Shown: positions 33,359 through 64,000, numbered from the stretch's first letter. The stretch: 64,000 bases of DNA from Bacteroidia bacterium (GCA_965279035.1 OZ257142.1:3424001-3488000), one strand, 5' to 3'. Notes: generated from the sequence alone by a model not told the origin. Made by a program: numbers and translations.

Positions 33359-33484
33359 TAACGTTCCGCACACACCTGAAGAGCCAAATGAGGTGAACGG
33401 AATGCTTTAGATTAGACGAATATAACAAGAAAATCGAATGCCTCAAACTCCCGAAATGCTTGGCTTTGCTGGTGTGTGCTGTTA
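33359..33484 (-). repeat. attC-like site 1 (resident family, empty)
   Basis: TAAC-GTTCC-GCACACACC..AGCCAA...TTGGCT..GGTGTGTGC-T-GTTA; the PIN gene stop overlaps its GTTA. Confidence 0.9.
33417..33447 (-). promoter_or_regulatory. Putative Bacteroidetes promoter inside the attC-like loop (representative copy)
   Basis: Minus strand TTTG-N19-TATATTCG versus consensus TTTG-N19-21-TAnnTTTG. Confidence 0.6.
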
Positions 33485-33904
33485 GCGGATGTCACCTATC
33501 CGTAAATATGTTTCTGGAGTCATTACTGATAAACTACTTTCCTTAAAATCTTTAATGTTTCTTGTCACGATTACTTTAATCTCTTTGTCATATTGCGCTG
33601 AGAAATTCTGTATCGCATCTTCAAAATCCTTAAATTCAGAATTTAGAGCTGCTAATATCGTTTCTTTATTTATTATCGCAATATCAATCATATTAATTAA
33701 CATCTTCAGATTCTCAATGACCTTCTCGTGTTTCGCTGTCTTTCTCAAAAGATAATACACATTACTTATTATCACAGGTGTTACAAAACCTGATATAACT
33801 TTCTTTTCACATAACATCAATATTTTAGTGGCATCGTCCGAAAATGGTTTTCTGTCAAAAAAGAAGTCGAGTATTACATCTGTATCAATTAAAACTTTAT
33901 TCAT
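33482..33904 (-). CDS. PIN-domain toxin (VapC-like)
   Basis: LIDTDVILD, DFEDA, IVTRNxKDF. Confidence 0.9.
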   Translation of the reverse strand: MNKVLIDTDVILDFFFDRKPFSDDATKILMLCEKKVISGFVTPVIISNVYYLLRKTAKHEKVIENLKMLINMIDIAIINKETILAALNSEFKDFEDAIQNFSAQYDKEIKVIVTRNIKDFKESSLSVMTPETYLRIGDIR

Positions 33905-33906
33905 AC

Positions 33907-34164
33907 TTACAAATATTTTTTGGCAATTGCATCTGTAAGTTCTTTCTTGTAATCAAAATCTTTTGGTAATTTAAATGAACCTCGTAATTGCTTTACAGTT
34001 GGACTCAAATCTTTATCATCAATCTCCTTTTCATTAGTTAAAGCTTTAAGATAATTTTCTATTAGGTCAGACAGACTTCTTTCCCGTTCCCGCGCATATC
34101 TTTTAGCCTTCTCAATTATTGATTGCTCAATCGTAAGCGTTAGTTTCGTATTCATAACCTTCAT
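33907..34164 (-). CDS. Antitoxin, DUF6364-like ribbon-helix-helix
   Basis: TKLTLTI..IEKAKRYA..SLSDLIENYL; immediately upstream of the PIN gene. Confidence 0.8.
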   Translation of the reverse strand: MKVMNTKLTLTIEQSIIEKAKRYARERERSLSDLIENYLKALTNEKEIDDKDLSPTVKQLRGSFKLPKDFDYKKELTDAIAKKYL

Positions 34165-34267
34165 TTTTCACAAAAGTAATAAAATTTTCAATATACACGT
34201 GCAAATATATCCAAATGAATACGTGTCGTTTGTTGGTGATTTCCGCTAACCTTTAGACTTGCAGTCA

Positions 34268-34457
34268 AAGATTTTAGCTGATAAATTTACCATAAATAAA
34301 TGTAGTTAACCGAAAGCAGGGCGACCTATGCGCTAACAAGGATAATAGGCCTATGGAACGATATAGTGCCCTACTTTCTGGTTATTTAAGCCTCAGATAG
34401 ATATTCGGGATTCAGGCCCATTATAAAGGTTTTGAGGTACAAATAACCATTGGTTAA
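34268..34457 (+). ncRNA. Predicted IS110 bridge RNA (copy 1; 5' end approximate)
   Basis: Two stem-bounded internal loops. LTG CGCTAAC 34331-34337; RTG GGAACG(AT) 34355-34362; LDG ATAGATAT 34397-34404; RDG TAAAGG(TT) 34424-34431. Confidence 0.85.
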
Positions 34458-34480
34458 TCCGTTTTGCTAATTATAAAATT

Positions 34481-35494
34481 ATGAATTCAAACCAGAACAA
34501 CCAAAAACATTTTGTAGGAACAGATGTTTCAAAAGAAACACTTGATGTAACGATCTTTTTCAACTCCTCAATGCATTTTCATCAGCAATTTTCAAATGAC
34601 AGCAAGGGCTTTAAGCAATTGCTGAAATGGCTAGAAACCTATCCTGAATTCAGTTTTGAAAATACTTTATTCTGCATGGAACATACAGGAATTTACACTC
34701 GTCAGTTTGTTGAATTCCTCCTTTCGAAAGAAGCAAAGGTATGGATGGAGTCGGCACTGCATTTAAAGCGTTCTATGGGCATGACAAGGGGCAAAAGTGA
34801 TAAGATCGATTCACTGCGAATTGCACGCTATGCAATGACTCATCAGGACCAAGCCAGGCTCGTAAATCTTTCCAATAAAACATTGTTGCTTATCAAAGAC
34901 CTTATGAGTGCAAGAGAGCGGAGTAAAAAGGCCTACCAGTCCATAAAAGTCTCCATTGATGAAATGCAAAGAGTCGATGCAGCAACAGCAAAAGAGCTCT
35001 TGAGGATTAATAAACCAGCCCTTTCTGGATTATTGAAAAGCAAGATGGCGTTGGAAAAACGGATGATGGAATTAATAGCGATGGATCCTGAACTGAACGA
35101 GCTATTTGAGCTGGTTACTTCTGTCAAAGGTGTGGGTAATGTATTGGCAACCGAACTGATTGTTTATACACATGCATTTAAAAGAATGGATGAAGCCAAA
35201 CAACTGGCCTGCTATTGCGGAGTCGCTCCTTTTTCTCATACTTCCGGCACGAGTGTGCATGGAAGAAATGGAACTTCAAACTTTGCTAACATGGGACTTA
35301 AATCAACTTTACACTTGGCTGCACTTTCTTCAATTCGTTACGTACCTGAGCTTAAAACATATTATCAGAGGAAAGTAGCTGAGGGAAAATCCAAAATGAG
35401 CGTAATTAATGCCGTGCGGAATAAACTGTTGCAACGTGTCTTAGCAGTGGTAAAAAGAGGAACGCCTTACCAAGAAAATTATCAAGTAAATTAA
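34481..35494 (+). CDS. IS110-family DEDD recombinase
   Basis: GTDVSK, CMEHTG, KSDKIDS (DEDD RuvC-like); C-terminal YCGVAP..SGTS. Confidence 0.95.
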   Translation: MNSNQNNQKHFVGTDVSKETLDVTIFFNSSMHFHQQFSNDSKGFKQLLKWLETYPEFSFENTLFCMEHTGIYTRQFVEFLLSKEAKVWMESALHLKRSMGMTRGKSDKIDSLRIARYAMTHQDQARLVNLSNKTLLLIKDLMSARERSKKAYQSIKVSIDEMQRVDAATAKELLRINKPALSGLLKSKMALEKRMMELIAMDPELNELFELVTSVKGVGNVLATELIVYTHAFKRMDEAKQLACYCGVAPFSHTSGTSVHGRNGTSNFANMGLKSTLHLAALSSIRYVPELKTYYQRKVAEGKSKMSVINAVRNKLLQRVLAVVKRGTPYQENYQVN

Positions 35495-35514
35495 TTTGGA
35501 AAACTCATAGATAT

Positions 35515-35637
35515 CGTTCCGCACACACCTGAAGAGCCAAATGAGATGAACGAAATGCTTTATATTAGACGAATATAACAAGAAAAACGAATGCCTCATA
35601 CTCCCGAAATGCTTGGCTTTGCTGGTGTGTGCTGTTA
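35515..35637 (-). repeat. attC-like site 2 (resident family, interrupted by IS110)
   Basis: Same repeat as site 1; its TAAC lies at 34247-34250. Confidence 0.9.
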
Positions 35638-35645: not shown

Positions 35646-36287
35646 TTATTTATTACTCCAGAATTCTTCAGTTAAATAAAAAACAGTGTCAATAAAATAA
35701 AGGACATTATTTCTAGTCAACACATTTTCATCATGCAAATCTTCGAGTATAATTCCTAAATTTTGATTAAAGTAATCGTTGTTTCTAGTATTTTGAAATC
35801 CATTTGAAGTCAAAAACTCTTTTAATTGATTTAAATCTGTATTACTTGTTATTGTAACATATGATTGTTGAACAACAGCATAAAGAATTTCATTCTCCTT
35901 GGTAAATCCAAGCAATTCATATGCAGTATCTTCAAAAAAAAAATTATGAATCAACAAATTATAAAAGTAATCTCTCCAACTGCTATAATAAATTCCATCA
36001 TTTAACTTTAAAACATGATCAGAGTTTTTGAGATACACTCTTTGCTCTGCTCCTTCACTTACATACTGAGTAAAATCAATATCAGATATCCAAAGCTTAT
36101 TTTCTGAAACAAAGATTTCTAATCTCTTTGCTTCTTGTTCTTTGAATTGCTTTGAGTTTTCAATTTTTGAGCCTGGTTGCGAGCCTTTGCTAAGGTAACT
36201 GGCGACTGATTGGATAGTTGTTCCAAACCTAACTTGGCTCTTTCCTGAAATGACATCATAAAGTTCTTGTTTAAGTTGGTCTTGCAT
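35646..36287 (-). CDS. Protein kinase-like protein (polyvalent-protein kinase type)
   Basis: EGAEQRVY, VLKLN, DLHDENVL, FIDT kinase-fold motifs. Confidence 0.65.
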   Translation of the reverse strand: MQDQLKQELYDVISGKSQVRFGTTIQSVASYLSKGSQPGSKIENSKQFKEQEAKRLEIFVSENKLWISDIDFTQYVSEGAEQRVYLKNSDHVLKLNDGIYYSSWRDYFYNLLIHNFFFEDTAYELLGFTKENEILYAVVQQSYVTITSNTDLNQLKEFLTSNGFQNTRNNDYFNQNLGIILEDLHDENVLTRNNVLYFIDTVFYLTEEFWSNK

Positions 36288-36356
36288 TAAAGCAAAGATA
36301 AGAAATGATTTTATAAGTCGGAATGCTTGTTTATCAGCGATTTACTAAATTACAGC

Positions 36357-36482
36357 TAACGTTTCGGGGGTTTGCGATGGCGGGGAGTTTTAGCACTAAA
36401 CTTCATTCGGAGAACTGAACTTCCACTAACCACAAATGTGTCTGCGAAGCACGGAACCCCCGCTATCGCAAACCCCATGTTA
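36357..36482 (-). repeat. attC-like site 3 (divergent family)
   Basis: TAAC..GGGGTTTGCGATGGCGGGG...CCCCGCTATCGCAAACCCC..GTTA. Confidence 0.9.
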
Positions 36483-36586
36483 GCGGATGCCCTTCTTCCC
36501 ATTCCACGAAGGTATGCACTTTATTTTGTCGCACAATTGTCTGATTAAATTTTTTGTCGTCAAAAGTTGTCAGCAAGTAACCACAC

Positions 36587-36620
36587 AAAAAATAAGCAGG
36601 GGTGGCGAAGCCACCCCTGC
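36587..36620 (-). terminator. Intrinsic terminator of the viperin unit
   Basis: 11-bp stem GCAGGGGTGGC/GCCACCCCTGC followed by TTATTTTTT on the minus strand. Confidence 0.8.
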
Positions 36621-36625
36621 CTTTA

Positions 36626-36784
36626 CTACTTGTCTTTTCCCTTTGGCGGCACAGGAGGCTGCTGTTTAGGGTCAAGTTGTTTGCCTCTGTTACCTTGATT
36701 TTTGTCATAGGTTTCGTTTGTGCCAGAGGTCCCTTTGTTCGGATTTTTTATGTCCGCTTCGTGATTTTTTTCTTTCTCACTCAT
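36626..36784 (-). CDS. Small 52-aa hydrophilic protein downstream of viperin
   Basis: Manual translation MSEKEKNHEADIKNPNKGTSGTNETYDKNQGNRGKQLDPKQQPPVPPKGKDK; ends just before the terminator. Confidence 0.6.
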   Translation of the reverse strand: MSEKEKNHEADIKNPNKGTSGTNETYDKNQGNRGKQLDPKQQPPVPPKGKDK

Positions 36785-36872
36785 TGTTTTTGGATTTAAC
36801 TGTGATGCTTCAATTTCTGCGTTTCTGCTTCCGCCCCTTAGTTTTAGTTGGACTTCGGTTTAACCAATATTT

Positions 36873-37739
36873 TTAGTTAACCGTTGTCCAGTTGTAGATG
36901 CCGCCTCTTGAAACAAACTTTGAAAAGTCGTAGCTCATTTGCTGAATAGCAAGTCTTGCCCCGATGTCTAAAATTGGTTTGCTGTAAATGTGTCCGCCTG
37001 TTGTGTTGTCGTAAAACCTGCCTGCTGGGTCAACCATAGCATAAGAACCAGTCATTTGATTGTTGTTCTCGGGAACTATGCTTGTAATGTCCAGAAGTCC
37101 TTTGTGGTTATCAATAAAAAATTGAAATTGCTCGTTTGTGATTTTGAATTTGTCAATGTTCAAATCGTTCTGTCCTTTCATTGGCAAAACTTGGAATAGT
37201 TTCCATCGTTTTGGTTTTGCATAACGGATAAACTCGCTCAAGTTTTCGTTGCAGTTCTTGCTACTTACAACTGTATTTATTTTTAGTCCATAACCGTGTT
37301 CTTTTATTCTGTCAACAAGCGAAGTGTAGTAGTCAATTTGTAAAGGTGTCTTGCCCGAAATTGCTCTGCCGGTTTCAATGTTTGTGTTAGCGTTTAAACT
37401 GTCAATGCTTACGGAAATCCAGTCAAGGTGCTGCTGATTAGCTTGCAAAAAACTGTCAGTAAGTTTACTGCCGTTGCTCACAATCATTGTTGTAAGTCCT
37501 GCTTGCTTGGCGGTTGTAATTAAATCGGGAAGCCAAGGGCAAAGAGTTGGTTCGCCTCCTGCGAAAGTGATTTTCTCAAAGCCAATTTCAGCAAGATGAA
37601 GGACTACTTCAATTGCTTGTTCTTTTGGTAAATGTCCTTTTGGTAAAATGCTTTGCTTAACATCTTGAAAGGTTGCGAAGCAAAACTTGCAACGCATGTT
37701 GCATGGCTCCCATAAATGAAAATTGACTGCTGGAATCAT
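36873..37739 (-). CDS. pVip: Prokaryotic viperin (radical SAM antiviral nucleotide dehydratase)
   Basis: VNFHLWEPCNMRCKFCFATF, KITFAGGEPTL, KINTVV, RWKLFQVL, SYAMVDPAGRF, RGGxYxW. Confidence 0.92.
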   Translation of the reverse strand: MIPAVNFHLWEPCNMRCKFCFATFQDVKQSILPKGHLPKEQAIEVVLHLAEIGFEKITFAGGEPTLCPWLPDLITTAKQAGLTTMIVSNGSKLTDSFLQANQQHLDWISVSIDSLNANTNIETGRAISGKTPLQIDYYTSLVDRIKEHGYGLKINTVVSSKNCNENLSEFIRYAKPKRWKLFQVLPMKGQNDLNIDKFKITNEQFQFFIDNHKGLLDITSIVPENNNQMTGSYAMVDPAGRFYDNTTGGHIYSKPILDIGARLAIQQMSYDFSKFVSRGGIYNWTTVN

Positions 37740-37821
37740 TTGTGTGTTTTTTAGTTTAACGACACAAATATTCAGCGACTTTTTAGGTCAGATTCTATTT
37801 GGAAAATAGAAACTTATTGAA

Positions 37822-37850
37822 AGTAATGAGTTGGCTTTTTTGAGTAATGA
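37822..37850 (-). promoter_or_regulatory. Candidate LytTR operator upstream of viperin
   Basis: Direct repeat AGTAATGA at 37822 and 37843 (21-bp period). Confidence 0.5.
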
Positions 37851-37856
37851 AATAGG

Positions 37857-38597
37857 TCAAGGCATCCGAAAATTCTCTGAGGTTTTTAAAAGTTTTGTTT
37901 CAATTTTTCCATTTTGGTTCATCACTTCAACTTCAATCTCACGACTTCCTTTCTTTCTTGGTTTAACATGCTTTTCGTTCACCACAACACCTCTGATAAT
38001 TTCCAAAAACTTTTGTTTGCTAAATCCTTTCTCGTGCATTTTAGCTATTGTAAAATCAATAAGTATTTCTGGTTTTCGGTCTATGAAGTAAATGATTTTG
38101 TTGTTTGATTCCGCACCATTTGCCTTGTCTGAACATAGATAAACTATAGTGTCAACCACTATTTTATTTTTTTTGCTCTCTGCAAAATCAAGGTTAATGT
38201 ATTTGGAAGTTATTTCTTCTCTCACTTCGTTGAGAAACTTTGTCGCCTTTTTAAGAAACTCCTTTTCCGTAAATGGTTTTGTAATGTGGTCAACAATTAA
38301 ATCAAATTCGCTTTCCAATTTTTCAATCTCTTTCAAATTCGCTGCGTTGTGTCCGCTAACAAACAATACTGGAAGTTTAAGTTTGTAAGCTACCTCTAAA
38401 CCATTCATGTTACTGCCACCGCCTAAATCAATGTCAAGAAGCAAAGCGTCAGCTTTGCTTGTTTTTTCATTGTTTAAAAAGTCGGTGGAGTTTGTTGCGA
38501 AAGCAACAACTTCAACTAACTCTGTCGCTTCCAAATTTTGTTTATGGTCTTTCAGTAGCGAAGGATTGTCTTCTAAAATTGCAACTTTAAGTTTCAT
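37857..38597 (-). CDS. LytTR-type response regulator
   Basis: Receiver domain VAILED, LLDIDL, ITKPF; degenerate LytTR C-terminus; start MKLKV overlaps the kinase stop (TAATG). Confidence 0.8.
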   Translation of the reverse strand: MKLKVAILEDNPSLLKDHKQNLEATELVEVVAFATNSTDFLNNEKTSKADALLLDIDLGGGSNMNGLEVAYKLKLPVLFVSGHNAANLKEIEKLESEFDLIVDHITKPFTEKEFLKKATKFLNEVREEITSKYINLDFAESKKNKIVVDTIVYLCSDKANGAESNNKIIYFIDRKPEILIDFTIAKMHEKGFSKQKFLEIIRGVVVNEKHVKPRKKGSREIEVEVMNQNGKIETKLLKTSENFRMP

Positions 38598-39310
38598 TAA
38601 AAGCGAATGATTAAAGTTGAAATATACTGTTGCTCGTTGCAACTATTTTTAAGGTCAAATTTTCCTGTCAGCAGAAGGTCTAATCGTTTTCTCATGTTGC
38701 TCAATCCAATTCCGCCTTTCGTTTCTCTTGGGTTTGGAATAATTCTGTTTACCACATTCAATTCAAAAGTTGTGTCCGAAAGTTTGAGTGTGATTTTCAA
38801 AAACTCTGGATGGTTTCTATCTCCGTGTTTGAAAGCGTTCTCAACGAAGTAAGCCGTTATCAGGTGAGGAACGCAAGCCGTTGTAAAAAATTTTGAGTTT
38901 GTATTCACTTGCGACTTGTCAATTTTTATGCTGTCAATTTGATAAACAAAATTTCCTTGAAGTGCTTTATACTTTTCAAGAAAGTTCAACTCCTCTTGAA
39001 TACTTACAAGATGTTTGTTGCCGTGATATAAAATGTAGTCAAGCGTTTCAGCAAGCGATTCAGAACCTTTGTAAAGATTTTTGGCTGCAACATTAAGCGT
39101 TGAAACCATGTTGCGTAGAGTGTGAGGTTGCAACTGAAATTTCAAATGCTCTGCCTCAAGTAAAGCGTTGTCGGCAATGAGTTTTGCGTTTTCCCTTGCA
39201 AGTTTGTCCCGCTGCTTTTTCTCTGCTTTCAGTTTGGAGTAAAGCCAAATACTGAGAACAATGAAAACTACAATTATGAAAATTAGTCCTTCGTTATCTT
39301 CCATTGTCAA
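38597..39310 (-). CDS. LytS-type histidine kinase with one TM and no obvious sensor domain
   Basis: LKFQLQPHTLRN, ENAFKHG, GGIGLSNMRKRL. Confidence 0.85.
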   Translation of the reverse strand: MTMEDNEGLIFIIVVFIVLSIWLYSKLKAEKKQRDKLARENAKLIADNALLEAEHLKFQLQPHTLRNMVSTLNVAAKNLYKGSESLAETLDYILYHGNKHLVSIQEELNFLEKYKALQGNFVYQIDSIKIDKSQVNTNSKFFTTACVPHLITAYFVENAFKHGDRNHPEFLKITLKLSDTTFELNVVNRIIPNPRETKGGIGLSNMRKRLDLLLTGKFDLKNSCNEQQYISTLIIRF

Positions 39311-39380
39311 GTTTACTAAAAGTCGTCATATTTTGCTGTCGGTTGATGGTTGCACGGTCGCTCATAGGGTTTCCGCTAAC

Positions 39381-40645
39381 CTTTAGACTTGCAGTCAAAG
39401 ATTTTAGCTGATAAATTTACCATAAATAAATGTAGTTAACCGAAAGCAGGGCGACCTATGCGCTAACAAGGATAATAGGCCTATGGAACGATATAGTGCC
39501 CTACTTTCTGGTTATTTAAGCCTCAGATAGATATTCGGGATTCAGGCCCATTATAAAGGTTTTGAGGTACAAATAACCATTGGTTAATCCGTTTTGCTAA
39601 TTATAAAATTATGAATTCAAACCAGAACAACCAAAAACATTTTGTAGGAACAGATGTTTCAAAAGAAACACTTGATGTAACGATCTTTTTCAACTCCTCA
39701 ATGCATTTTCATCAGCAATTTTCAAATGACAGCAAGGGCTTTAAGCAATTGCTGAAATGGCTAGAAACCTATCCTGAATTCAGTTTTGAAAATACTTTAT
39801 TCTGCATGGAACATACAGGAATTTACACTCGTCAGTTTGTTGAATTCCTCCTTTCGAAAGAAGCAAAGGTATGGATGGAGTCGGCACTGCATTTAAAGCG
39901 TTCTATGGGCATGACAAGGGGCAAAAGTGATAAGATCGATTCACTGCGAATTGCACGCTATGCAATGACTCATCAGGACCAAGCCAGGCTCGTAAATCTT
40001 TCCAATAAAACATTGTTGCTTATCAAAGACCTTATGAGTGCAAGAGAGCGGAGTAAAAAGGCCTACCAGTCCATAAAAGTCTCCATTGATGAAATGCAAA
40101 GAGTCGATGCAGCAACAGCAAAAGAGCTCTTGAGGATTAATAAACCAGCCCTTTCTGGATTATTGAAAAGCAAGATGGCGTTGGAAAAACGGATGATGGA
40201 ATTAATAGCGATGGATCCTGAACTGAACGAGCTATTTGAGCTGGTTACTTCTGTCAAAGGTGTGGGTAATGTATTGGCAACCGAACTGATTGTTTATACA
40301 CATGCATTTAAAAGAATGGATGAAGCCAAACAACTGGCCTGCTATTGCGGAGTCGCTCCTTTTTCTCATACTTCCGGCACGAGTGTGCATGGAAGAAATG
40401 GAACTTCAAACTTTGCTAACATGGGACTTAAATCAACTTTACACTTGGCTGCACTTTCTTCAATTCGTTACGTACCTGAGCTTAAAACATATTATCAGAG
40501 GAAAGTAGCTGAGGGAAAATCCAAAATGAGCGTAATTAATGCCGTGCGGAATAAACTGTTGCAACGTGTCTTAGCAGTGGTAAAAAGAGGAACGCCTTAC
40601 CAAGAAAATTATCAAGTAAATTAATTTGGAAAACTCATAGATATC
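39381..40645 (+). mobile_element. IS110 copy 2 in attC-like site 4 (bridge RNA ~39398-39587)
   Basis: Same ends and junctions as copy 1. Confidence 0.95.
39611..40624 (+). CDS. IS110 recombinase
   Basis: Identical translation to copy 1. Confidence 0.95.
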   Translation: MNSNQNNQKHFVGTDVSKETLDVTIFFNSSMHFHQQFSNDSKGFKQLLKWLETYPEFSFENTLFCMEHTGIYTRQFVEFLLSKEAKVWMESALHLKRSMGMTRGKSDKIDSLRIARYAMTHQDQARLVNLSNKTLLLIKDLMSARERSKKAYQSIKVSIDEMQRVDAATAKELLRINKPALSGLLKSKMALEKRMMELIAMDPELNELFELVTSVKGVGNVLATELIVYTHAFKRMDEAKQLACYCGVAPFSHTSGTSVHGRNGTSNFANMGLKSTLHLAALSSIRYVPELKTYYQRKVAEGKSKMSVINAVRNKLLQRVLAVVKRGTPYQENYQVN

Positions 40646-40767
40646 GTTCCGCACACACCTGAAGAGCCAAACGAGGTGAACGAAATGCTTTAGATTAGAC
40701 GAATATAACAAGAAAAACGGATGCTTCAAACTCCCGAAATGCTTGGCTTTGCTGGTGTGTGCTGTTA
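40645..40767 (-). repeat. attC-like site 4 (interrupted by IS110)
   Basis: Resident family repeat. Confidence 0.9.
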
Positions 40768-41454: not shown

Positions 41455-41579
41455 TAACGGTCCGGCGATTTGCGAATGCGCGGAACAGTTTACCCAAATG
41501 TATCAAAACAAACGAAATGTTTCAATCAGAAAAATGACTTATAGAACGAAAATGCCCGCGTATCGCAGATTGCCTGTTA
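41455..41579 (-). repeat. attC-like site 5 (divergent)
   Basis: TAAC-GGTCC-GGCGATTTGCGA...TCGCAGATTGCC-T-GTTA. Confidence 0.88.
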
Positions 41580-41960
41580 TTTGATGCGCGCCAAGTCCGA
41601 TTCAGTTCTAGCAAAGTTTCCAAGCAAAAAAAGCGACTTGAATACACATTCTGAAATAAGGCCAAAAACCATTCTGCAAATATTCTGTGTTTGTCGCCAT
41701 CAATTCTCTAGTTGATTTCATCAATCCATTAATTTGATTTTATCAGCAGTTCATTCCAGGCATATGGCGACAAACTTTTCAAAAACCTCTCAAATGGTTT
41801 TTGCCTATCCCTCAAATGCCGAGCTTTTTTTATCAAAAACGATTAGACATTCGTTTATTACTTTATTGTTTCCTGATAGCCGAAACTTCCTTTCGCCTTT
41901 AATGAATTATCTGACCACAATGCGAATGGCGAGTTTGGAAAATTTCGCGTTTCAAATAAC
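41576..41960. other. Non-coding structured cassette, copy A
   Basis: Ends GTTATTTGA/TCAAATAAC; no self-contained ORF >=60 aa; nested inverted repeats. Confidence 0.75.
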
Positions 41961-42082
41961 GTTCCGCACACACCTGAAGAGCCAAACGACGTGAACGGAT
42001 AGCTTTAGATTAGACGAATATAACAAGAAAAACGAATGCCTCAAACTCCCGAAATGCTTGGCTTTGCTGGTGTGTGCTGTTA
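41957..42082 (-). repeat. attC-like site 6 (resident family, empty)
   Basis: Same repeat as site 1. Confidence 0.9.
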
Positions 42083-42578: not shown

Positions 42579-42663
42579 AAGTATTTAATTACAGGTGACT
42601 TATTGATACTGATTTTCAAATGTTCAAAGTGACGTGATTGCTTTATGTAGGGTGTCCGCTAAC

Positions 42664-43928: not shown

Positions 43929-44050
43929 GTTCCGCACACACCTGAAGAGCCAAACGAGGTGAACGAAATGCTTTAGATTAGACGAATATAACAAGAAAAA
44001 CGAATGCCTCAAACTCCGGAAATGCTTGGCTTTGCTGGTGTGTGCTGTTA
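43928..44050 (-). repeat. attC-like site 7 (interrupted by IS110)
   Basis: Resident family repeat. Confidence 0.9.
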
Positions 44051-45304: not shown

Positions 45305-45430
45305 TAACGTTTTCGGGCTTGGCGAAGGTGGCGATTTTCACCACAAATGTTAATGCGGAGAACCAAACTTTGATTAACCACAAATGTGTCTACGGTGCAC
45401 TGAACCGCCACTTTTGCCAAACCCGTGTTA
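45305..45430 (-). repeat. attC-like site 8 (divergent)
   Basis: TAAC-GTTTT-CGGGCTTGGCGAAGGTGGCG...CGCCACTTTTGCCAAACCCG-T-GTTA. Confidence 0.9.
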
Positions 45431-50435: not shown

Positions 50436-50557
50436 GTTTCGCACACACCTGAAGAGCCAAATGAGTTGAACGAAATGCTTTAGATTAGACGAATATAACA
50501 AGAAAAACGAATGCCTCAAACTCCCGAAATGCTTGGCTTTGCTGGTGTGTGCTGTTA
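50435..50557 (-). repeat. attC-like site 11 (interrupted by IS110)
   Basis: Resident family repeat. Confidence 0.9.
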
Positions 50558-51292: not shown

Positions 51293-51417
51293 TAACGCTC
51301 CGCAGCTATCGGCTGAACCGGAGAACGGAACGTGATGCTTTAGATTATACGAATGTAATATAGAATTACCAATGTATCAACTTACCCAAATGCCGGTTTT
51401 GCCGATAGCTGCTGTTA
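51293..51417 (-). repeat. attC-like site 12 (variant stem)
   Basis: TAAC-GCTCC-GCAGCTATCGGC..ACCGG...CCGGT..GCCGATAGCTGC-T-GTTA. Confidence 0.9.
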
Positions 51418-54247: not shown

Positions 54248-54317
54248 TGTGGTTGTAACTGTTCATTTATTGCAGGATGTTCAAAGTTAGCACTGTCGCC
54301 AATTGGTTGCGTATAAC

Positions 54318-55582
54318 CTTTAGACTTGCAGTCAAAGATTTTAGCTGATAAATTTACCATAAATAAATGTAGTTAACCGAAAGCAGGGCGACCTATGCGC
54401 TAACAAGGATAATAGGCCTATGGAACGATATAGTGCCCTACTTTCTGGTTATTTAAGCCTCAGATAGATATTCGGGATTCAGGCCCATTATAAAGGTTTT
54501 GAGGTACAAATAACCATTGGTTAATCCGTTTTGCTAATTATAAAATTATGAATTCAAACCAGAACAACCAAAAACATTTTGTAGGAACAGATGTTTCAAA
54601 AGAAACACTTGATGTAACGATCTTTTTCAACTCCTCAATGCATTTTCATCAGCAATTTTCAAATGACAGCAAGGGCTTTAAGCAATTGCTGAAATGGCTA
54701 GAAACCTATCCTGAATTCAGTTTTGAAAATACTTTATTCTGCATGGAACATACAGGAATTTACACTCGTCAGTTTGTTGAATTCCTCCTTTCGAAAGAAG
54801 CAAAGGTATGGATGGAGTCGGCACTGCATTTAAAGCGTTCTATGGGCATGACAAGGGGCAAAAGTGATAAGATCGATTCACTGCGAATTGCACGCTATGC
54901 AATGACTCATCAGGACCAAGCCAGGCTCGTAAATCTTTCCAATAAAACATTGTTGCTTATCAAAGACCTTATGAGTGCAAGAGAGCGGAGTAAAAAGGCC
55001 TACCAGTCCATAAAAGTCTCCATTGATGAAATGCAAAGAGTCGATGCAGCAACAGCAAAAGAGCTCTTGAGGATTAATAAACCAGCCCTTTCTGGATTAT
55101 TGAAAAGCAAGATGGCGTTGGAAAAACGGATGATGGAATTAATAGCGATGGATCCTGAACTGAACGAGCTATTTGAGCTGGTTACTTCTGTCAAAGGTGT
55201 GGGTAATGTATTGGCAACCGAACTGATTGTTTATACACATGCATTTAAAAGAATGGATGAAGCCAAACAACTGGCCTGCTATTGCGGAGTCGCTCCTTTT
55301 TCTCATACTTCCGGCACGAGTGTGCATGGAAGAAATGGAACTTCAAACTTTGCTAACATGGGACTTAAATCAACTTTACACTTGGCTGCACTTTCTTCAA
55401 TTCGTTACGTACCTGAGCTTAAAACATATTATCAGAGGAAAGTAGCTGAGGGAAAATCCAAAATGAGCGTAATTAATGCCGTGCGGAATAAACTGTTGCA
55501 ACGTGTCTTAGCAGTGGTAAAAAGAGGAACGCCTTACCAAGAAAATTATCAAGTAAATTAATTTGGAAAACTCATAGATATC
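54318..55582 (+). mobile_element. IS110 copy 5 in attC-like site 13 (bridge RNA ~54335-54524)
   Basis: Same ends; target GTATAAC|GTTCCG. Confidence 0.95.
54548..55561 (+). CDS. IS110 recombinase
   Basis: Identical translation to copy 1. Confidence 0.95.
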   Translation: MNSNQNNQKHFVGTDVSKETLDVTIFFNSSMHFHQQFSNDSKGFKQLLKWLETYPEFSFENTLFCMEHTGIYTRQFVEFLLSKEAKVWMESALHLKRSMGMTRGKSDKIDSLRIARYAMTHQDQARLVNLSNKTLLLIKDLMSARERSKKAYQSIKVSIDEMQRVDAATAKELLRINKPALSGLLKSKMALEKRMMELIAMDPELNELFELVTSVKGVGNVLATELIVYTHAFKRMDEAKQLACYCGVAPFSHTSGTSVHGRNGTSNFANMGLKSTLHLAALSSIRYVPELKTYYQRKVAEGKSKMSVINAVRNKLLQRVLAVVKRGTPYQENYQVN

Positions 55583-55704
55583 GTTCCGCACACACCTGAA
55601 GAGCCAAATGAGATGAACGGAATGCTTTAGATTAGACGAATATAACAAGAAAAACGAATGCCTCAAACTCCCGAAATGCTTGGCTTTGCTGGTGTGTGCT
55701 GTTA
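55582..55704 (-). repeat. attC-like site 13 (interrupted by IS110)
   Basis: Resident family repeat. Confidence 0.9.
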
Positions 55705-56486: not shown

Positions 56487-56612
56487 TAACGTTTTGCAGC
56501 TACCCGAAGGGCGGGACTTTTACCACAAAACTTGATTTGAAAAGCTAAAGTTTGATTAACCACAAAACTGTCATTGGAACACGAAACCCCGCTTTTTGGG
56601 TAGGTGCTGTTA
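56487..56612 (-). repeat. attC-like site 14 (divergent)
   Basis: TAAC-GTTTT-GCAGCTACCCGAAGGGCGGG...CCCGCTTTTTGGGTAGGTGC-T-GTTA. Confidence 0.9.
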
Positions 56613-56752
56613 GGTGCTGGCGTTCTGTCTGTCGTTGCTCTGTTGTCCATTGTTTGCAGTGTCTTTGGTGCGTTGGCTTGGTGGCTCTTTTGCATTTTTT
56701 GTTTGGCTTTGTGCGTTTGAAAAAAATGCAAATGTGCCACCAAATGCGTTGG

Positions 56753-59700
56753 CTATTGTCCTTCAATTATTTTCTGTTCTTCTGGTGTAATGTCGTAAAG
56801 CTTATAAACTAATTGGTCAATTTTCCTTTCAAGGTCGGTAGTTGAAGTTCCTTTTTTGCTTATTATTTTTCTACCAAATCTATAAATGGTTGTTGTTCTG
56901 TTGGGCTAATTTTTTTAACAGGAATTTCTGTCAGTGGTGTATAATACAACTCTAAACTTTCTCCTTTTCTTTTGCCTTTATTGTAAAGCCAAAAGAAGTA
57001 AAGTTTTGAATTTAACAATGCAAGAATATATTTGAGACTAAAGTCTTTTTTTGCATTGGTTATATAGTAAACATCTGCACTAGAATACCATATACTATTG
57101 TTGTAACCAAAAACATTCGATTTAGTCCTTTGAGGGCAAACAATTTTTTCACCTTCAAAAACTGATTTTGTTCTTGCTGCAAAAATAACCCACCATTTAC
57201 CAAGTTTTACTGCCGCTTGCATTTCTCCTCTTTCTTGGCTTCTGTTTTTTATTACAGCCTCAAACTTTTCAAAATGTTTTTTAATTGTTGGATAATTTCC
57301 TATTTAAATATCCCTTGTTGCATATATTACTTGATACTTTGATTCATCAGAAGTCCAATATTTGTGAATGTCAGAGTTCTTAAACCAAGGTCTAATTAAT
57401 TCTAATTCTTGTTTTGAAAATTTTTTATTATTTACTTCTTCATTTGTAAGAACATAAACACCTTGATTGATATTTTCAACTTGTGTTAGTTCATTTTCAA
57501 TATGCTTATTTGAAATTCTATCCACGCCACTTAAAATTCCTTGACTAATGTCACAAATTTCAATTAACGGAGTTCCTTGATCAATTATTTTATTGAAAAT
57601 TGAATTATCTTTAGTAGAATTTTCTTTATTTCCTAAGCCCTGTAAGCGGATATAATTGTTTGTCGTTTCATATAGTTCAGTTTGTGGTGCTAAATAAATT
57701 TTTGAATTTTCGTTCTGTGCTGAGATAACTTTATCAAACAGTTCTTGATTACAGTCGCCAGTTTCAGATGTTACAAGATTATGTGCTAGTGAAGTAGCAT
57801 TTATTCCTTTGGTTAAAAATGTTATTAAGTTATGTTGACCTTTAGCAGATTCAAATATTCTTAGCTCATTCAAATTAACTAAACCGTTTATAGTTGCACT
57901 ATTTTTAAAGTCGGTTCGTAAATTTTCACCTCCGTCACTTGTTAAATAGTAGTTTGTTGTGATGTAAGCCAGTTTCCCATTTTCTTTAAGCAATTGCAGT
58001 CCCAAATGAAAAAAGAAATAAAATATATCCATTTTCCTTTGATAAAAATTTGCAAGGTTGCCTTGGCGAATAATTCTGAATACTTCTTTATGACCTTTTT
58101 CTCCGATGTATGGTGGATTTCCAATTATAGCGTCAAAGCCTTCAAATTCGCCATTATTATTAAGAACTTCTGGAAATTCAAATCGCCATTCAAATGCACT
58201 TTTATAGATTACGTTATTTTTTATTTCCTCAATTTCTTTGGAAAGAATATTGATGTCAGCTTCTAATTTTATTTGATTATCCTTTTGTATCTTTTTCTGT
58301 TTACTATCAAGTTCAAATAATTTTCCTTGATTTAGCAAATTAAAAAGGTCTCCGCTAAGTTTTCTGAGTTTAATTTGTTTGGGGTCATTGTTGCCAATTT
58401 CAGTTCGAAAATCAGATTTAATACTGTCAATGATTTTTTGCAAACCTCTTTTAACATCACGACTTTTTTCGTTTTTGTAATCGTTTACAAATCCTCTGTA
58501 TGCTTTTACATCGTATTTGATGCTTTTCAAAGCTTTGCTTAAATCTGAATCAAACGTAAACCTACTTAACAAACTATTTCCACATTTAATATTGATGTCA
58601 ATATTTGGAAGTGTTTCAAGTTCAGCATAATTCGTTTCTGCTTTGTAATAAGCATTTTTTAAAAGCTCTATCCACAAACGTAAACGGCAAATTTTTACGG
58701 AGTTTGGATTGATATCAACGCCAAACAAGCAGTTTTCGATTATTGTTTGCTTTTCGTGGAAAAGTGTTTTTTGAATCCTATTGCTTTCTTTATTTAATGG
58801 ATTGTATGCAAAAATGTTGCTGTTTTCATCAGTAATAATAAGTTCATCATTTATTATTTCAATTTCATAATCTCTAAGAGTTTTCCCTTTCTCGTCCATT
58901 AGTATACCGAGTTCACTTTTTACCGCTATTATTTCGTTAAGTGCAGAAACTAAAAAGTGACCAGAGCCGACTGCTGGGTCGCAAATTTTAATTGAATTAA
59001 TTATTTCGTTTGCTTCTTTTTTGTCTTCAATTTTATTGTAAAGTTCATCGAATTGCTTAATGTTCCATTTTTTATTTACATTGAATTTCTCAACAACAGC
59101 AAGGCGAATTGATTGTTTACACATATACATCGTGATAAATGCTGGCGTGAAAATCGAACCGTCTTTGTAACCATTAATTTTTTCAAATACTTTACCAAGA
59201 ACCGAGGCATTAATAATTGTTTTATTGTCTTCTTGAACATCTTCAGTTCCTTCACTTGCAAAGTCGTAAGCATCTAAAAACTGAAAAAGATAATCCAAAG
59301 TGGGCAGCGAAGCTGCCTTCTTTTTTGTATCTTTTAATATTGTTGTTCCAATTATTTCAAGTTGTCCGTTGTTATCAAGTGAATTTATTTTAATCGTTAA
59401 GTCTTCTAATTCGCTTATCTCAAAAAGTGAACTATTTAAGTATGGAACTTTGCTATACTTAATTTTAATTGCATCAGTTCTTTCTGTTAGATTTATAGCT
59501 AAAACTTTATGAAACAGTTTAAACAATTCATCAAAATCATTTATCATTGATGAATTTAGGAAGCGATACTCCTTATTACCTTGATGATAAGTTATGAGTT
59601 GACCTTCTAATAATTTTAGAAACAGGATTCTGTTTATCCAAGTAATACAAAGCTCAAGCGAAATATTATATATCCTTTCTTCTTTATTTTCTCCATATAA

Positions 59701-60621
59701 AGATTGGTCGGGAATTCTATGTAAAACATCTTCTGTATTTAATGCTTCTATAGTTGCTTCAAAAAGTGAAGCTAGGTTCCGGTTTTCTTTTTTACGCCTA
59801 ATTATATTCCTACCACCTTCCTTAACTTCTTCAAGTCCGATTATGTGAAGTAGTTCTCTATAGAACTTTTCGTTAAGAGAGTTACTATCGTTTGGTGTTG
59901 CTACTTTTAATAAGTGTGTTGGTGAAAGAATTTTGAATAATGCAATTAATTCTTTGTCGTCCTCTTTATTGTTGTTTCTTAAAACCTTATCATATTCTCT
60001 GATGTCGAAGTAAACACAAGGTATTTCAACTTCAATTTTGGCAACTATTTTGGCTATTTCTTCATAAAAAAACGGGTTATCTTTTTTGTCGTTGAGTTTG
60101 GTTTCGTATAGTTTTTTTATTTGTGTATTTCGGTAAATATGTTTGTCGAAATAATTTGCGTCAATAATAAACCATTGGTTTACATTGGTCATTACCAACT
60201 GTTTTAGTTGGTTGTTTCCTGCTTGGTTTCTCTCGTCTAAGTAATAAAGTATAAGTTCGTGAAGTGCTTTTTTGTTAGGGTTGTCAGCCGTTACCATTTC
60301 ACCAATATTGGTAGGCCGTTTGGCTTCTATAATTACTCCAACCTCGCTGTCAGTTGTCTTGCCGAGATGAATTACAAGGTCTTTTTTGTCTTTGGTGTTG
60401 ATTGCGTTGGTGTCACGATAGTATGTGTCCCGCAGAAAGTCACGTAAGTCGTTTTTTAAATGTTCTTCACTTTCGTCTTTAGGTCGTTTTTCTATAACGC
60501 TGATTTTGTCGAGTAAAGCAATGAGGTTTGTTTTAAAAACGTCAATTTCGCTTCTCAAAGGTTTTTGCTTTAAGAAGGCTTTTAGTGCTTTTTTCGGTGT
60601 TTGCGTTATTAGTTTCATCAA
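56753..60621 (-). pseudogene. Type IIG (Eco57I-like) fused restriction-modification enzyme with an in-frame stop and a frameshift
   Basis: IIEAK, ICDPAVGSGHFL, IIGNPPY; in-frame TAA at 57304-57306; frameshift near 56866 before IDQLVYKLYDITPEE tail. Confidence 0.85.
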
Positions 60622-60869
60622 ATTTTCTATGTCAATTATTAAGCTCGCTAAGTTAAGTTTTAAAACCGTTTTTCAGTCCAAAGTTGTCGGCAAATTGTCA
60701 ACCTGCTGAATGTCTTGGTGCGGTTGGGCAAAATTAAATGTGCTGCAATTTGGGTCGGCTTGTGCGGTTGCATTGCAGCTCTTTTAATTTTGCGAAGCGT
60801 TGGCATTTTGTCGTCTGTTTTAATGTTAGTTTGTTGTCTGTTGTGTCGTCCTTTACGCTTGCACCTAAC

Positions 60870-62134
60870 CTTTAGACTTGCAGTCAAAGATTTTAGCTGA
60901 TAAATTTACCATAAATAAATGTAGTTAACCGAAAGCAGGGCGACCTATGCGCTAACAAGGATAATAGGCCTATGGAACGATATAGTGCCCTACTTTCTGG
61001 TTATTTAAGCCTCAGATAGATATTCGGGATTCAGGCCCATTATAAAGGTTTTGAGGTACAAATAACCATTGGTTAATCCGTTTTGCTAATTATAAAATTA
61101 TGAATTCAAACCAGAACAACCAAAAACATTTTGTAGGAACAGATGTTTCAAAAGAAACACTTGATGTAACGATCTTTTTCAACTCCTCAATGCATTTTCA
61201 TCAGCAATTTTCAAATGACAGCAAGGGCTTTAAGCAATTGCTGAAATGGCTAGAAACCTATCCTGAATTCAGTTTTGAAAATACTTTATTCTGCATGGAA
61301 CATACAGGAATTTACACTCGTCAGTTTGTTGAATTCCTCCTTTCGAAAGAAGCAAAGGTATGGATGGAGTCGGCACTGCATTTAAAGCGTTCTATGGGCA
61401 TGACAAGGGGCAAAAGTGATAAGATCGATTCACTGCGAATTGCACGCTATGCAATGACTCATCAGGACCAAGCCAGGCTCGTAAATCTTTCCAATAAAAC
61501 ATTGTTGCTTATCAAAGACCTTATGAGTGCAAGAGAGCGGAGTAAAAAGGCCTACCAGTCCATAAAAGTCTCCATTGATGAAATGCAAAGAGTCGATGCA
61601 GCAACAGCAAAAGAGCTCTTGAGGATTAATAAACCAGCCCTTTCTGGATTATTGAAAAGCAAGATGGCGTTGGAAAAACGGATGATGGAATTAATAGCGA
61701 TGGATCCTGAACTGAACGAGCTATTTGAGCTGGTTACTTCTGTCAAAGGTGTGGGTAATGTATTGGCAACCGAACTGATTGTTTATACACATGCATTTAA
61801 AAGAATGGATGAAGCCAAACAACTGGCCTGCTATTGCGGAGTCGCTCCTTTTTCTCATACTTCCGGCACGAGTGTGCATGGAAGAAATGGAACTTCAAAC
61901 TTTGCTAACATGGGACTTAAATCAACTTTACACTTGGCTGCACTTTCTTCAATTCGTTACGTACCTGAGCTTAAAACATATTATCAGAGGAAAGTAGCTG
62001 AGGGAAAATCCAAAATGAGCGTAATTAATGCCGTGCGGAATAAACTGTTGCAACGTGTCTTAGCAGTGGTAAAAAGAGGAACGCCTTACCAAGAAAATTA
62101 TCAAGTAAATTAATTTGGAAAACTCATAGATATC
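60870..62134 (+). mobile_element. IS110 copy 6 in attC-like site 15 (bridge RNA ~60887-61076)
   Basis: Same ends; target ACCTAAC|GTTCCG. Confidence 0.95.
61100..62113 (+). CDS. IS110 recombinase
   Basis: Identical translation to copy 1. Confidence 0.95.
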   Translation: MNSNQNNQKHFVGTDVSKETLDVTIFFNSSMHFHQQFSNDSKGFKQLLKWLETYPEFSFENTLFCMEHTGIYTRQFVEFLLSKEAKVWMESALHLKRSMGMTRGKSDKIDSLRIARYAMTHQDQARLVNLSNKTLLLIKDLMSARERSKKAYQSIKVSIDEMQRVDAATAKELLRINKPALSGLLKSKMALEKRMMELIAMDPELNELFELVTSVKGVGNVLATELIVYTHAFKRMDEAKQLACYCGVAPFSHTSGTSVHGRNGTSNFANMGLKSTLHLAALSSIRYVPELKTYYQRKVAEGKSKMSVINAVRNKLLQRVLAVVKRGTPYQENYQVN

Positions 62135-62256
62135 GTTCCGCACACACTTGAAGTGCCAAATGAAATGAGCAGAATGCTTTAGATTAAACGAAAGTAACAA
62201 AGAAAACGGATGATTCAATACAGCGGAAAGCTTGGCATTTCTAGTGTGTGCTGTTA
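62134..62256 (-). repeat. attC-like site 15 (diverged resident family, interrupted by IS110)
   Basis: GCACACACT..TGCCAA...TTGGCA..AGTGTGTGC-T-GTTA with compensatory stem changes. Confidence 0.9.
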
Positions 62257-62293
62257 GCAGATGTGCCTAAACTAAAATCTAATCATGATAAAG

Positions 62294-62324
62294 TTTGCAA
62301 TTTGAAAACATTTGATTACTTTTG
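62294..62324 (+). promoter_or_regulatory. Bacteroidetes promoter for higBA
   Basis: TTTG-N19-TACTTTTG, exact consensus. Confidence 0.7.
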
Positions 62325-62328
62325 CCTT

Positions 62329-62655
62329 GTGAAAGTTCTTGTCAAGAAAACGATTCTATTTTATATCAAAAAATATCCAATGGCTGAAACTCAGCTAATG
62401 ATTTGGTATACGGAATTTTCAAGACATCAATTTTCTAATTTCAATGAACTTAAAAAGGTTTATGGAAATGCTAGCATTGTCAATAATAATAGAGTTGTTT
62501 TCAATATTAAAGGCAATGACTTTAGATTGGTAATTTCAATAAACTTTTTACAAGCTGCATCTTATGTGATTTGGTTTGGAACTCATAAAGAATATGATAA
62601 AATTGATGTTCAAACTATTTCTTTCGACACAGCCATTCTAACAAATAAAAAGTGA
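62329..62655 (+). CDS. higB: HigB-family toxin
   Basis: RVVFNIKGNDFRLV, WFGTHKEYDKID; probable GTG start at 62329. Confidence 0.9.
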   Translation: MKVLVKKTILFYIKKYPMAETQLMIWYTEFSRHQFSNFNELKKVYGNASIVNNNRVVFNIKGNDFRLVISINFLQAASYVIWFGTHKEYDKIDVQTISFDTAILTNKK

Positions 62656-62659
62656 AACT

Positions 62660-63016
62660 ATGAATTGGAAAGTATTGAAAACTGAAGACGATTATAACAA
62701 AGCTTCAATTCGTATGATGGAAATATTTCATGCTGAGCCTAATACTCCTGAAAAAGATGAATTAGACCTGTTGCTTTTGCTTGTAAAAGATTTTGATGAC
62801 AAACATTATCAATTACCAGAGCTTGATGCATTGGAAGTCATTAAATACAAAATGAAAGAAAAAGGAATGAAAGCAAAAGATCTAGAGCCGATAATTGGAA
62901 GCAAAGGTCATGTTTCTGCAATTCTTTCTGGTAAACGTGAGATTACATTAAAAATGGCTCAAAAGCTGAAAAATTACTTTAGCCTTCCAGCTGAAGTTTT
63001 CTTGCATGGTGCTTAA
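62660..63016 (+). CDS. higA: HigA-family HTH antitoxin
   Basis: KTEDDY, DLEPIIGSKGHVSAILSGKREITLKM. Confidence 0.9.
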   Translation: MNWKVLKTEDDYNKASIRMMEIFHAEPNTPEKDELDLLLLLVKDFDDKHYQLPELDALEVIKYKMKEKGMKAKDLEPIIGSKGHVSAILSGKREITLKMAQKLKNYFSLPAEVFLHGA

Positions 63017-63057
63017 TAATGTTTCTTAGTAACGTGATGATAATTTGGCATTTCTGC

Positions 63058-63182
63058 TAACGTTCCGTGGCTTTGCGATGTGCGGAATAGATTAACGTAA
63101 TGCCTCAGATTAGACGAATCTACCCAACAATACGGATGATTCAAAGTAGCTGAAATGCCCGCATATAGCAAAGCCACTGTTA
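63058..63182 (-). repeat. attC-like site 16 (variant stem, empty)
   Basis: TAAC-GTTCC-GTGGCTTTGCGATGTGCGG...CCGCATATAGCAAAGCCAC-T-GTTA. Confidence 0.9.
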
Positions 63183-63195
63183 GAGGCTGACAATT

Positions 63196-64000
63196 TCACT
63201 CCACAATAAATCTTCTAATAAAACTTTCATTTCCATTGATAACTTTTACCCAATACAAACCACATGAAAAATTTAATTCTTTGAGTTGGATTGAATATAA
63301 CAAACTAGAACACTTCGCTTCATAAACAATTGCTCCTTGTGCATTGAAAAGGTATATACTTGGATTTTGAAGATGCGTATTCAATAAACGGATATTCAAA
63401 ATATCTTTTGAAGGATTTGGATAGATTGAAATATCAGACTTAGGTTTTTCAATATACTCAGTATTATTAATTCCAAGTGTATCACAAAAACTTCCATCAA
63501 TTGGCCCTAACCTAAAATTGGCAAAGTTTGAGGGAGAAACGAAGGTTGTTACGTTTTCGGTTGTATCTGAATTAAAAACAAAATCACAAGCAAAGCCAGG
63601 CAAATTAGGTTTACGAATTCTACATAAAGTATTGATTACCGTTGTGTCATTTTCTACAATTTGCCCTGCAAGAAATATTTCTTTTCCATTAGGAGCTATT
63701 TGTGGTGAGTTCGTAATTGTTGTTGATAACAAAGTCCAATTTGAACTATTTAAATCGTATTGCAAGAGAGCTCGACTTAGATCTAAATCAGGCCACGATG
63801 ATCTTCGAATATAAAGCTTAGAGCCATCAGGGCTAATGTTACAGGCATTATGGTCACCATAAGGAATTGAATCTGTTAAATCGTGTACTATTGGATTGCT
63901 TAAAGTGCCCGAACAACGGTCAAAATCGTATTCGTGAAGGTATTTATAACGCTTGCCAGTAAAGTGTAGGAATTTCAATCCATCGAAGGAAAAATATGAA
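63196..64000 (-). CDS. 3' part of a T9SS type A CTD secreted protein (runs off window)
   Basis: IYPNPS...GLYWV..RRFIVE; reading frame open towards the window edge. Confidence 0.8.
   Translation of the reverse strand, partial: SYFSFDGLKFLHFTGKRYKYLHEYDFDRCSGTLSNPIVHDLTDSIPYGDHNACNISPDGSKLYIRRSSWPDLDLSRALLQYDLNSSNWTLLSTTITNSPQIAPNGKEIFLAGQIVENDTTVINTLCRIRKPNLPGFACDFVFNSDTTENVTTFVSPSNFANFRLGPIDGSFCDTLGINNTEYIEKPKSDISIYPNPSKDILNIRLLNTHLQNPSIYLFNAQGAIVYEAKCSSLLYSIQLKELNFSCGLYWVKVINGNESFIRRFIVE

Follow-up and report, generated by a model that had tools for sequence, protein, structure and literature searches.

A probable integron-like cassette array of a variant class, six of its hairpin sites split by an IS110-family element, in a Flavobacteriales-like genome

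Integrons are held to be rare in Bacteroidota, and they are defined by an integrase whose special domain reads extrahelical bases. What, then, is a long array of small gene cassettes on a Bacteroidota chromosome, bounded by hairpins that have no extrahelical bases? The question is raised by a stretch of 64,000 nucleotides from a Bacteroidia bacterium (GCA_965279035.1 OZ257142.1:3424001-3488000; the whole stretch is referred to here as the window), part of a freshwater Flavobacteriales-type (Bacteroidota) chromosome. From 33359 to its end at 64000, the window holds 15 complete cassettes and a sixteenth that runs off it, genes and polarity being those of the minus strand. We consider it very probable that this region is the integrase-distal part of a chromosomal integron-like cassette array of a variant class in a Flavobacteriales-like genome. 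Judging from relatives, cassettes would be excised as circles and inserted by an Xer/XerA-like tyrosine recombinase, whose gene would lie upstream of the array and co-oriented with it, beyond the right end of the window. Insertion would take place at an attI-like site just past the recombinase stop codon; the coding strand would be crossed over at G|TT, which corresponds to TAA|C of the + strand of the window, beside a 5-nt spacer. An IS110-family insertion sequence (IS) has entered at this same crossover point in six sites of the GCACACACC type, parting one of the two terminal R boxes from its hairpin.

Hairpin sites and cassette ends

A scan for TAAC...GTTA units with complementary arms, followed by inspection, yielded 16 hairpin sites spanning 33359-63182, each 125-127 nt long with TAAC and GTTA included. 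A first-pass annotation of the same DNA had given this count and this length, and both stand, except that six of the hairpins are contiguous only after removal of a 1265-bp IS whose copies it had overlooked. A custom covariance model, a check which that annotation had proposed, was built from the alignment of the 16 sites and recovers exactly these sites in the window, all on the + strand, with no site in 1-33353. The RYYYAAC inverse core and the GTTRRRY core are present in all 16. Spacers of five bases after TAAC and one before GTTA separate the boxes from the stem in 15 of the 16, the exception being c36 (six and two), so that the surplus of four unpaired bases beside one R box, which had been claimed as constant, is found in every site.

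When folded, the sites would pair into one unbroken stem, some 20 bp long and containing mismatches, and a loop of about 70 nt; no single-base bulges (extrahelical bases) were seen among the stems inspected. Compensatory changes on both sides occur at 15 of the 16 consensus stem pairs across the hairpin families, in agreement with the earlier claim that stems differ between families while pairing is kept. The claim that this geometry is unlike that of the classical attC holds as well: on the description given by Nivina 2016, the classical site has a spacer of 5-6 nt in both arms and extrahelical bases on the arm opposite the triplet, whereas the window sites have a 5x1 loop in place of the two-armed spacer and lack the 2-3 extrahelical bases. 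None of the sites matches Rfam at the gathering score.

As the first-pass annotation had noticed, the ends of every complete cassette (15/15) are reverse-complementary; the complementary run extends 4-6 nt beyond GTTA/TAAC in each, for a total of 75 nt, and in 10,000 permutations of the partners the total averaged 17.8 nt and never exceeded 42. Between the two boxes of the same site, the total is only 10 nt. The signal is thus far beyond chance.

Nine of the sites are of one near-identical type; among eight of these, 2-8 of 118 positions differ, whereas o62, the ninth and a diverged variant of GCACACACT, departs from the other eight at 23-27. Free of the IS are a33 (33359-33484; model score 146 bits), which is the distal-most site in view, f41b (41957-42082), and j47 (47397-47522), all of the GCACACACC type and, like every site described here, assigned to the minus strand by array polarity. 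A second family comprises c36 (36357-36482), h45 (45305-45430), and n56 (56487-56612), the last 90% identical to a site in a related genome (G003, locus L105). Site e41 (41455-41579) is of a unique type, i46 (46893-47019) combines unique stems with a family-1 loop, and the remaining uninterrupted sites are l51 (51293-51417) and p63 (63058-63182). At site h45 (45331-45408), contigs of metagenome runs X2 and X4 keep the stems but have 37 other letters in place of 76 nt of loop; in nature, one stem type can therefore carry differing loops.

Recombinase, attI-like site, and direction of the array

No tyrosine recombinase was found among the 52 open reading frames (ORFs) scanned across the window, just as the first-pass annotation had seen no integrase in view. 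That annotation had suggested a divergent tyrosine recombinase as the agent, a suggestion that relatives bear out. These were fetched by a loop motif, which gave 90 stretches in the genome collection, 80 loci of which were retrieved. Strong model matches (E below 1e-15) were obtained in nine of the 80, all nine in Flavobacteriales or Bacteroidia metagenome-assembled genomes (MAGs), most of the 90 stretches being isolated chance hits in phyla that are unrelated. All five genomes of these loci that were searched contain arrays of this class of site (5, 1, 9, 9, and 8 model matches), and the 4-nt surplus recurs in 28 of the 35 related sites that could be scored, the other seven having been mis-anchored by the script.

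None of these five array-bearing genomes encodes an IntI above the TIGR02249 cut-off. The best TIGR02249 matches, on contigs G001:C17 and G005:C4, directly adjoin arrays and skip model positions 181-238. The G005 protein is matched best in NCBIfam by NF040815 (XerA-type; 227 bits), its TIGR02249 score being 204 bits against a cut-off of 265; it aligns end to end, without insertion, with archaeal XerA structures, and it has 19 residues where IntI4 of V. cholerae (PDB 2a3v) has 61, among them the IntI-specific domain. The alignment keeps the catalytic R, H-x-x-R, and Y in register. The additional domain that IntI carries near patch III is thus absent from the array-adjacent recombinases of the relatives examined, and its absence and that of extrahelical bases and a symmetric spacer from the sites are two losses that fit each other. 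In public records, close homologues are labelled 'site-specific tyrosine recombinase/integron integrase' or XerD. A homologue (E<=1e-60) is present in 38 of 151 sampled Flavobacteriales genomes, nine of them at at least 60% identity, which indicates a patchy distribution. Hairpin matches (E<0.02, within a 1.5-kb flank) accompany the recombinase gene at 8 of 25 loci, in each case 3' of the gene and on the opposite strand. Because the recombinase of the relatives stands at the end that matches the window's right, an integrase would be expected to the right of 64000.

The block of sequence that follows the recombinase stop codon is conserved in 9 of 10 related loci and ends in ...ATATAAAnnA-GTT, with unrelated sequence beyond the GTT, as would be the case for an attI with a G|TT crossover beside the integrase gene; the window ends before such a region. 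The block holds a small conserved hairpin (ATCTACCCA..TGGGTG). At loci L113-L121, a long flanking inverted repeat 40-140 nt past the recombinase stop varies between loci with its pairing kept. At L101 and L102, the first unit after the attI GTT has complementary ends, and its hairpin is on the side away from the integrase. Two G001 contigs, C17 and C30 (L102 and L110), share the same outer flank and the same attI and recombinase 3' end (94-96% alike), carry different cassettes, and lose their flank homology at the TAAC-side box; going by these sequences, the difference looks like strain-level cassette turnover within one population.

By these attI junctions, the main crossover is at TAA|C on the window's + strand, that is, at G|TT on the coding minus strand. 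The first-pass annotation had it at G|TT of the + strand, where some breaks in homology are indeed seen, but the attI junctions put the main crossover at the other R box, and our own provisional choice of the + strand as the 'top' strand, made from the duplication of two cassette bodies (A and B, below), was dropped as a general rule once these junctions had been seen. That annotation had also overlooked the coding strand, which is the minus strand in 12 of the 13 complete cassettes that contain ORFs. The attI junctions and the L101, L102, and L110 loci together give the order, read along the coding strand, of integrase, attI, G|TT, gene, TAAC-N1-stem...stem-N5-G|TT. On the window's + strand, where AA|C would be cleaved, the extra bases and the triplet share one arm.

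Attempts to extend the array rightward through metagenomes from its last ORF retrieved only relatives 57-69% identical and gave no extension; in one of the eight loci of such relatives, a hairpin of another type follows the gene, but at 65% protein identity it is uninformative on linkage. A cassette at L108 that encodes PIN and DUF6364 proteins (68% identical) was considered as evidence of polarity and rejected as too diverged, one of its flanking sites having decayed. The decayed site (L108 2340-2500, on G005:C75) has GAAC/GTTG instead of TAAC/GTTA and poor arm pairing, and it stands between the PIN/DUF6364 cassette and a second small gene pair.

IS insertions, uncoupled hairpin cores, and competing readings

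Six identical 1265-bp copies of an IS110-family element, all on the + strand (34251-35515, 39381-40645, 42664-43928, 49171-50435, 54318-55582, and 60870-62134), split six of the 16 sites. The insertion point, between TAAC and GTTCC with a 1-nt ambiguity, and the orientation are the same in all six, and every split site is a GCACACACC-type hairpin, o62 being the diverged variant. In each, the TAAC box is cut off from the rest of the hairpin and lies to the left of the IS: b35 (35516-35637; box 34242-34250), d40 (40646-40767; box 39372-39380), g43 (43929-44050; box 42655-42663), k50 (50436-50557; box 49162-49170), m55 (55583-55704; box 54309-54317), and o62 (62135-62256; box 60861-60869). We infer that separation of the R box from the hairpin disables these six sites. 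Because the six host hairpins are not identical (o62 in particular), the IS must have entered pre-existing sites rather than carried the hairpin along.

The transposase (337 aa; 34481-35494 in the first copy) has the Pfam domains DEDD_Tnp_IS110 (PF01548) and Transposase_20 (PF02371), and it matches the NCBIfam model NF033542, 'IS110 family RNA-guided transposase', with 157 bits against a cut-off of 140. The 230-nt non-coding region 5' of its gene (34251-34480 in the first copy, + strand) contains two stem-loops (folding z = -2.65) and guide-like segments both for the target (CGCTAAC, left, top strand; GGAACG, right, bottom strand) and for the IS ends (ATAGATAT, right end; TAAAGG, left end, bottom strand). 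A long upstream non-coding region with matches to target and IS ends is the IS110 arrangement; only about 21 nt of the IS remain after the transposase stop codon, and the downstream non-coding region of the IS1111-attC group is therefore lacking. A seekRNA or bridge RNA pattern is reportedly described by Durrant 2024 and Hiraizumi 2024. By its sequence, the 5' region is a candidate seekRNA/bridge RNA, its guide segments following the pattern described in Siddiquee 2024, where IS110/IS1111 elements are also said to target folded repeats such as repetitive extragenic palindromes (REP) and attC. In run X19, sequencing depth over the IS is 6398, about ten times the ~570-700 of single-copy DNA; the isolate-like runs X19-X22 contain 95% of the words sampled. 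No copy was found in the five related array-bearing MAGs, a result that shows nothing, since repeats of this kind are usually lost from short-read MAGs. Protection of the three IS-free GCACACACC sites by their left flanks was considered and rejected as unproven, the occupied m55 being as mismatched to the putative left guide as the empty sites.

Under classical integron logic, a hairpin is inherited with one neighbouring cassette body. In our sample, which is small and contains three clear cases, the hairpin does not travel with the cassette gene. The ORF-less bodies A (41580-41956) and B (47020-47396) are 95% alike, against 50% for the hairpins to the left of them, the homology having its start at T-GTTA. 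Duplicate bodies at L105 are 82% alike and the three hairpins surrounding them 54-64% alike. Contigs of cassette 12, from three metagenome runs of two studies, start 8 nt left of G|TTA, end at TAAC, and cover neither flanking hairpin, although such contigs cannot prove absence of the hairpins; in the longest X1 contig, the body shows 4 differences in 2006 nt (99.8% alike), and parts of the array left uncovered in runs X1, X2, and X4 are likewise not evidence of absence. L048 and L074 agree at 98.1% in the left body and at 84.3% in the hairpin, and they are unrelated to the right of it. Homology therefore breaks at both R boxes. One could envision that both strands are recombined, hairpin by hairpin, strand choice being weak where extrahelical bases are missing, as Nivina 2016 reports of mutants in which these bases were deleted. 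Alternatively, there may be two staggered strand exchanges with the hairpin as the overlap region, or gene conversion among hairpins; we have considered all three explanations.

The first three of these comparisons weigh against an integron-like array in its plain form, and so do several observations on the recombinase: 17 of the 25 recombinase loci have no hairpin match by the threshold used above, with a model that is biased to the window families, and an array-adjacent recombinase is present in only two of the five array-bearing MAGs, none having been found in G002-G004 with the query used, these MAGs being incomplete. The recombinase of the source genome is itself inferred from relatives, as the window holds none, and neither excision circles nor rearrangements were observed directly. 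Joints between R boxes in run X19, which might have been taken for circles, were rejected; with sides of 20-36 nt and chromosome-like depth, they are taken here as an effect of repeated boxes in short contigs.

If there are two crossover points, one at each R box, whether because both strands are recombined or through two staggered exchanges, hairpin cores would shuffle independently of genes. A bolder form of the reading builds on this point: the array would belong to a second, undescribed gene-capture lineage of Flavobacteriales, independent of or ancestral to classical integrons and run by an Xer/XerA-like enzyme that lacks the IntI domain, in which the hairpin is an exchangeable 'overlap' module between two crossovers and an RNA-guided IS110 element would be a specialist for the crossover of one hairpin type. 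We put this forward tentatively, as a possibility against which the odds still lie.

Less probable again is a reading that keeps the integron but reverses the unit, with the hairpin belonging to the gene that comes after it on the coding strand and the top strand folded and cut at the R box with the 1-nt spacer, or both strands used. It would account for the A/B homology, which starts to the right of the left-hand hairpins, and for the left ends of the cassette-12 contigs in all three runs; moreover, the folded coding strand would have AAC opposite the extra bases, which is the rule for the recombined strand of the classical attC as given by Nivina 2016. Yet by the attI junctions (9/10 loci), crossover on the side of the integrase belongs to the other box, with the first hairpin distal to the integrase, and L102 and L110 cease to share their flank at the box on the TAAC side. 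The L048/L074 pair argues in the same direction in that its hairpin, at 84.3%, was not inherited with a left body that is 98.1% alike, and at L105 neither flanking hairpin follows the body. We regard this alternative as improbable.

A variant array served by its own Xer/XerA-like enzyme must also be set against an ordinary integron remnant, a cluster of attC sites lacking integrase (CALIN), whose divergent attC would be served by a canonical IntI elsewhere in the genome, the Xer-like gene being a bystander. The R boxes do fit RYYYAAC/GTTRRRY, cassette ends are complementary as in classical cassettes, the sites are similar in length to the repeats of sedentary chromosomal integrons, and the recombinase search of the source genome covered the 64-kb window only. 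What makes this quite unlikely is that IntI above the family cut-off is found in none of the five related array-bearing genomes, whereas the conserved block after the Xer-like gene ends at a G|TT cassette junction in 9 of 10 loci and hairpins lie in one fixed orientation downstream of that gene in all eight loci with matches below E = 0.02; the sites, besides, have neither the symmetric spacer nor the extrahelical bases that IntI reads. That the hairpins belong to no recombination system at all, being REPs or MITE-like elements possibly spread by the IS110-family element or serving only as its targets, would suit both the targeting of folded repeats by IS110/IS1111 elements (Siddiquee 2024) and the nine sites of one near-identical type, but it predicts neither cassette-specific complementary ends in 15 of 15 units, nor arrays that keep strictly to one orientation next to a recombinase whose junction is conserved, nor covarying stems in unrelated families, and with the IS not found in the five related array-bearing genomes it can hardly be right.

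Cassette cargo, known systems, and implications

Apart from two of about 380 nt that have no convincing ORF, the bodies A and B, every cassette contains one to five genes, and almost all of these genes are coded on the minus strand. The sole + strand cassette encodes a HigB-like toxin and an HTH protein (62248-63016) that match PD-Lambda-2 A and B. The cargo further includes a PIN/DUF6364 toxin-antitoxin pair, methyltransferases, type IX-secreted proteins, and a prokaryotic viperin (36873-37739, minus strand), which matches the PADLOC pVip-kinase model with 470 bits over the viperin half only; the viperin cassette also encodes a response regulator and a histidine-kinase-like ORF. A polyvalent-protein kinase (35646-36287) is in the cassette beside it, so that the two halves of a known fusion are split between neighbouring cassettes (35646-39310). 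Within 56863-60621, a type IIG restriction-modification enzyme (1105 aa, PADLOC 735 bits) is followed by a separate 119-aa ORF with a TaqI-like specificity domain, and the two may be a split or frameshifted gene. Cassette 14 contains two inverted repeats, at 56678-56743 and 60728-60793, with arms of 22-23 nt, the first of which is kept in the homologous body of L025.

At its left edge, the array adjoins a fragment of an IS3-type integrase core (207 aa; 32467-33090), and an IS4-type DDE transposase lies farther left (18313-19479). The bases just left of a33 are similar to the closing stretch of the ORF-less bodies A and B, and by this resemblance there may be a truncated cassette at the left edge. 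Just left of the array is a low-GC block (28000-32000; 0.25-0.27, as compared to ~0.36 elsewhere) that encodes MBOAT and acyltransferase genes and a hydrolase.

The sedentary chromosomal integron of Vibrio cholerae has repeats of ~120-130 nt. Like sedentary chromosomal integrons, the present array is long and of one orientation, with small cassettes, complementary ends, and long, locally homogeneous hairpin sites with RYYYAAC/GTTRRRY boxes, and it shares with them, as portrayed in the Darracq 2024 preprint, toxin-antitoxin and anti-phage cargo. It differs from them in that the recombinase of its relatives is without the additional domain of IntI, in the 5x1 loop in place of a spacer of 5-6 by 5-6 nt and the lack of extrahelical bases, and in a hairpin core that is not inherited with the neighbouring cassette. 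Integrons with inverted integrase, as outlined for the Treponema group in Cury 2016 and Ghaly 2022, likewise have the integrase co-oriented with the cassettes and the array after its 3' end, but on that outline theirs are identified as IntI by both IntegronFinder profiles, whereas in the present system the domain is missing and the sites have another geometry. With 16 sites and no integrase in 64 kb, the region also resembles a CALIN; however, CALINs are defined through IntegronFinder's attC model, whereas these sites were found by a scan for TAAC...GTTA units, and the array runs off the window on the very side where relatives carry the recombinase.

The recombinase of the relatives is like Xer/XerA enzymes in the end-to-end alignment with archaeal XerA noted above. 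Xer sites are short and double-stranded. In contrast to Xer/dif, pdif modules, and IMEXs, the sites here form covarying hairpins of 125 nt and belong to an array that has an attI-like site. The IS, for its part, differs from the attC-targeting IS1111-attC group (ISPst6, ISKpn4) in that its long non-coding region precedes the transposase gene, an arrangement of the IS110 and not the IS1111 type, and in that its targets are non-canonical sites of a Bacteroidota array.

According to Cury 2016, recombinases without the IntI C-terminal profile are not IntI, and in the published account of IntegronFinder results for Bacteroidetes there are only integrase-alone elements and one complete integron, in Salinibacter. 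As both the IntI domain and the classical attC geometry failed here, we do not file the array as an integron in the strict sense. No description of this site class was found in the literature on Bacteroidota integrons, of which most subscription journals and the supplements were not covered. New are the six RNA-guided IS insertions at the crossover, the polarity of the array, the recombinase and the attI to which such arrays are linked in relatives, and hairpin cores that are not coupled to cassettes.

This Flavobacteriales-type genome thus appears to hold a large, defence-rich array of the integron kind whose sites have no extrahelical bases and whose recombinase, going by relatives, has no domain to read them. 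The IS110 element at the crossover point would then be a second, independent case of an RNA-guided IS that targets cassette sites. If this reading is true, the definition and the host range of integron-type gene capture would widen, standard detection tools probably miss a whole class, and these arrays would offer a natural test of how a strand is chosen without extrahelical bases.

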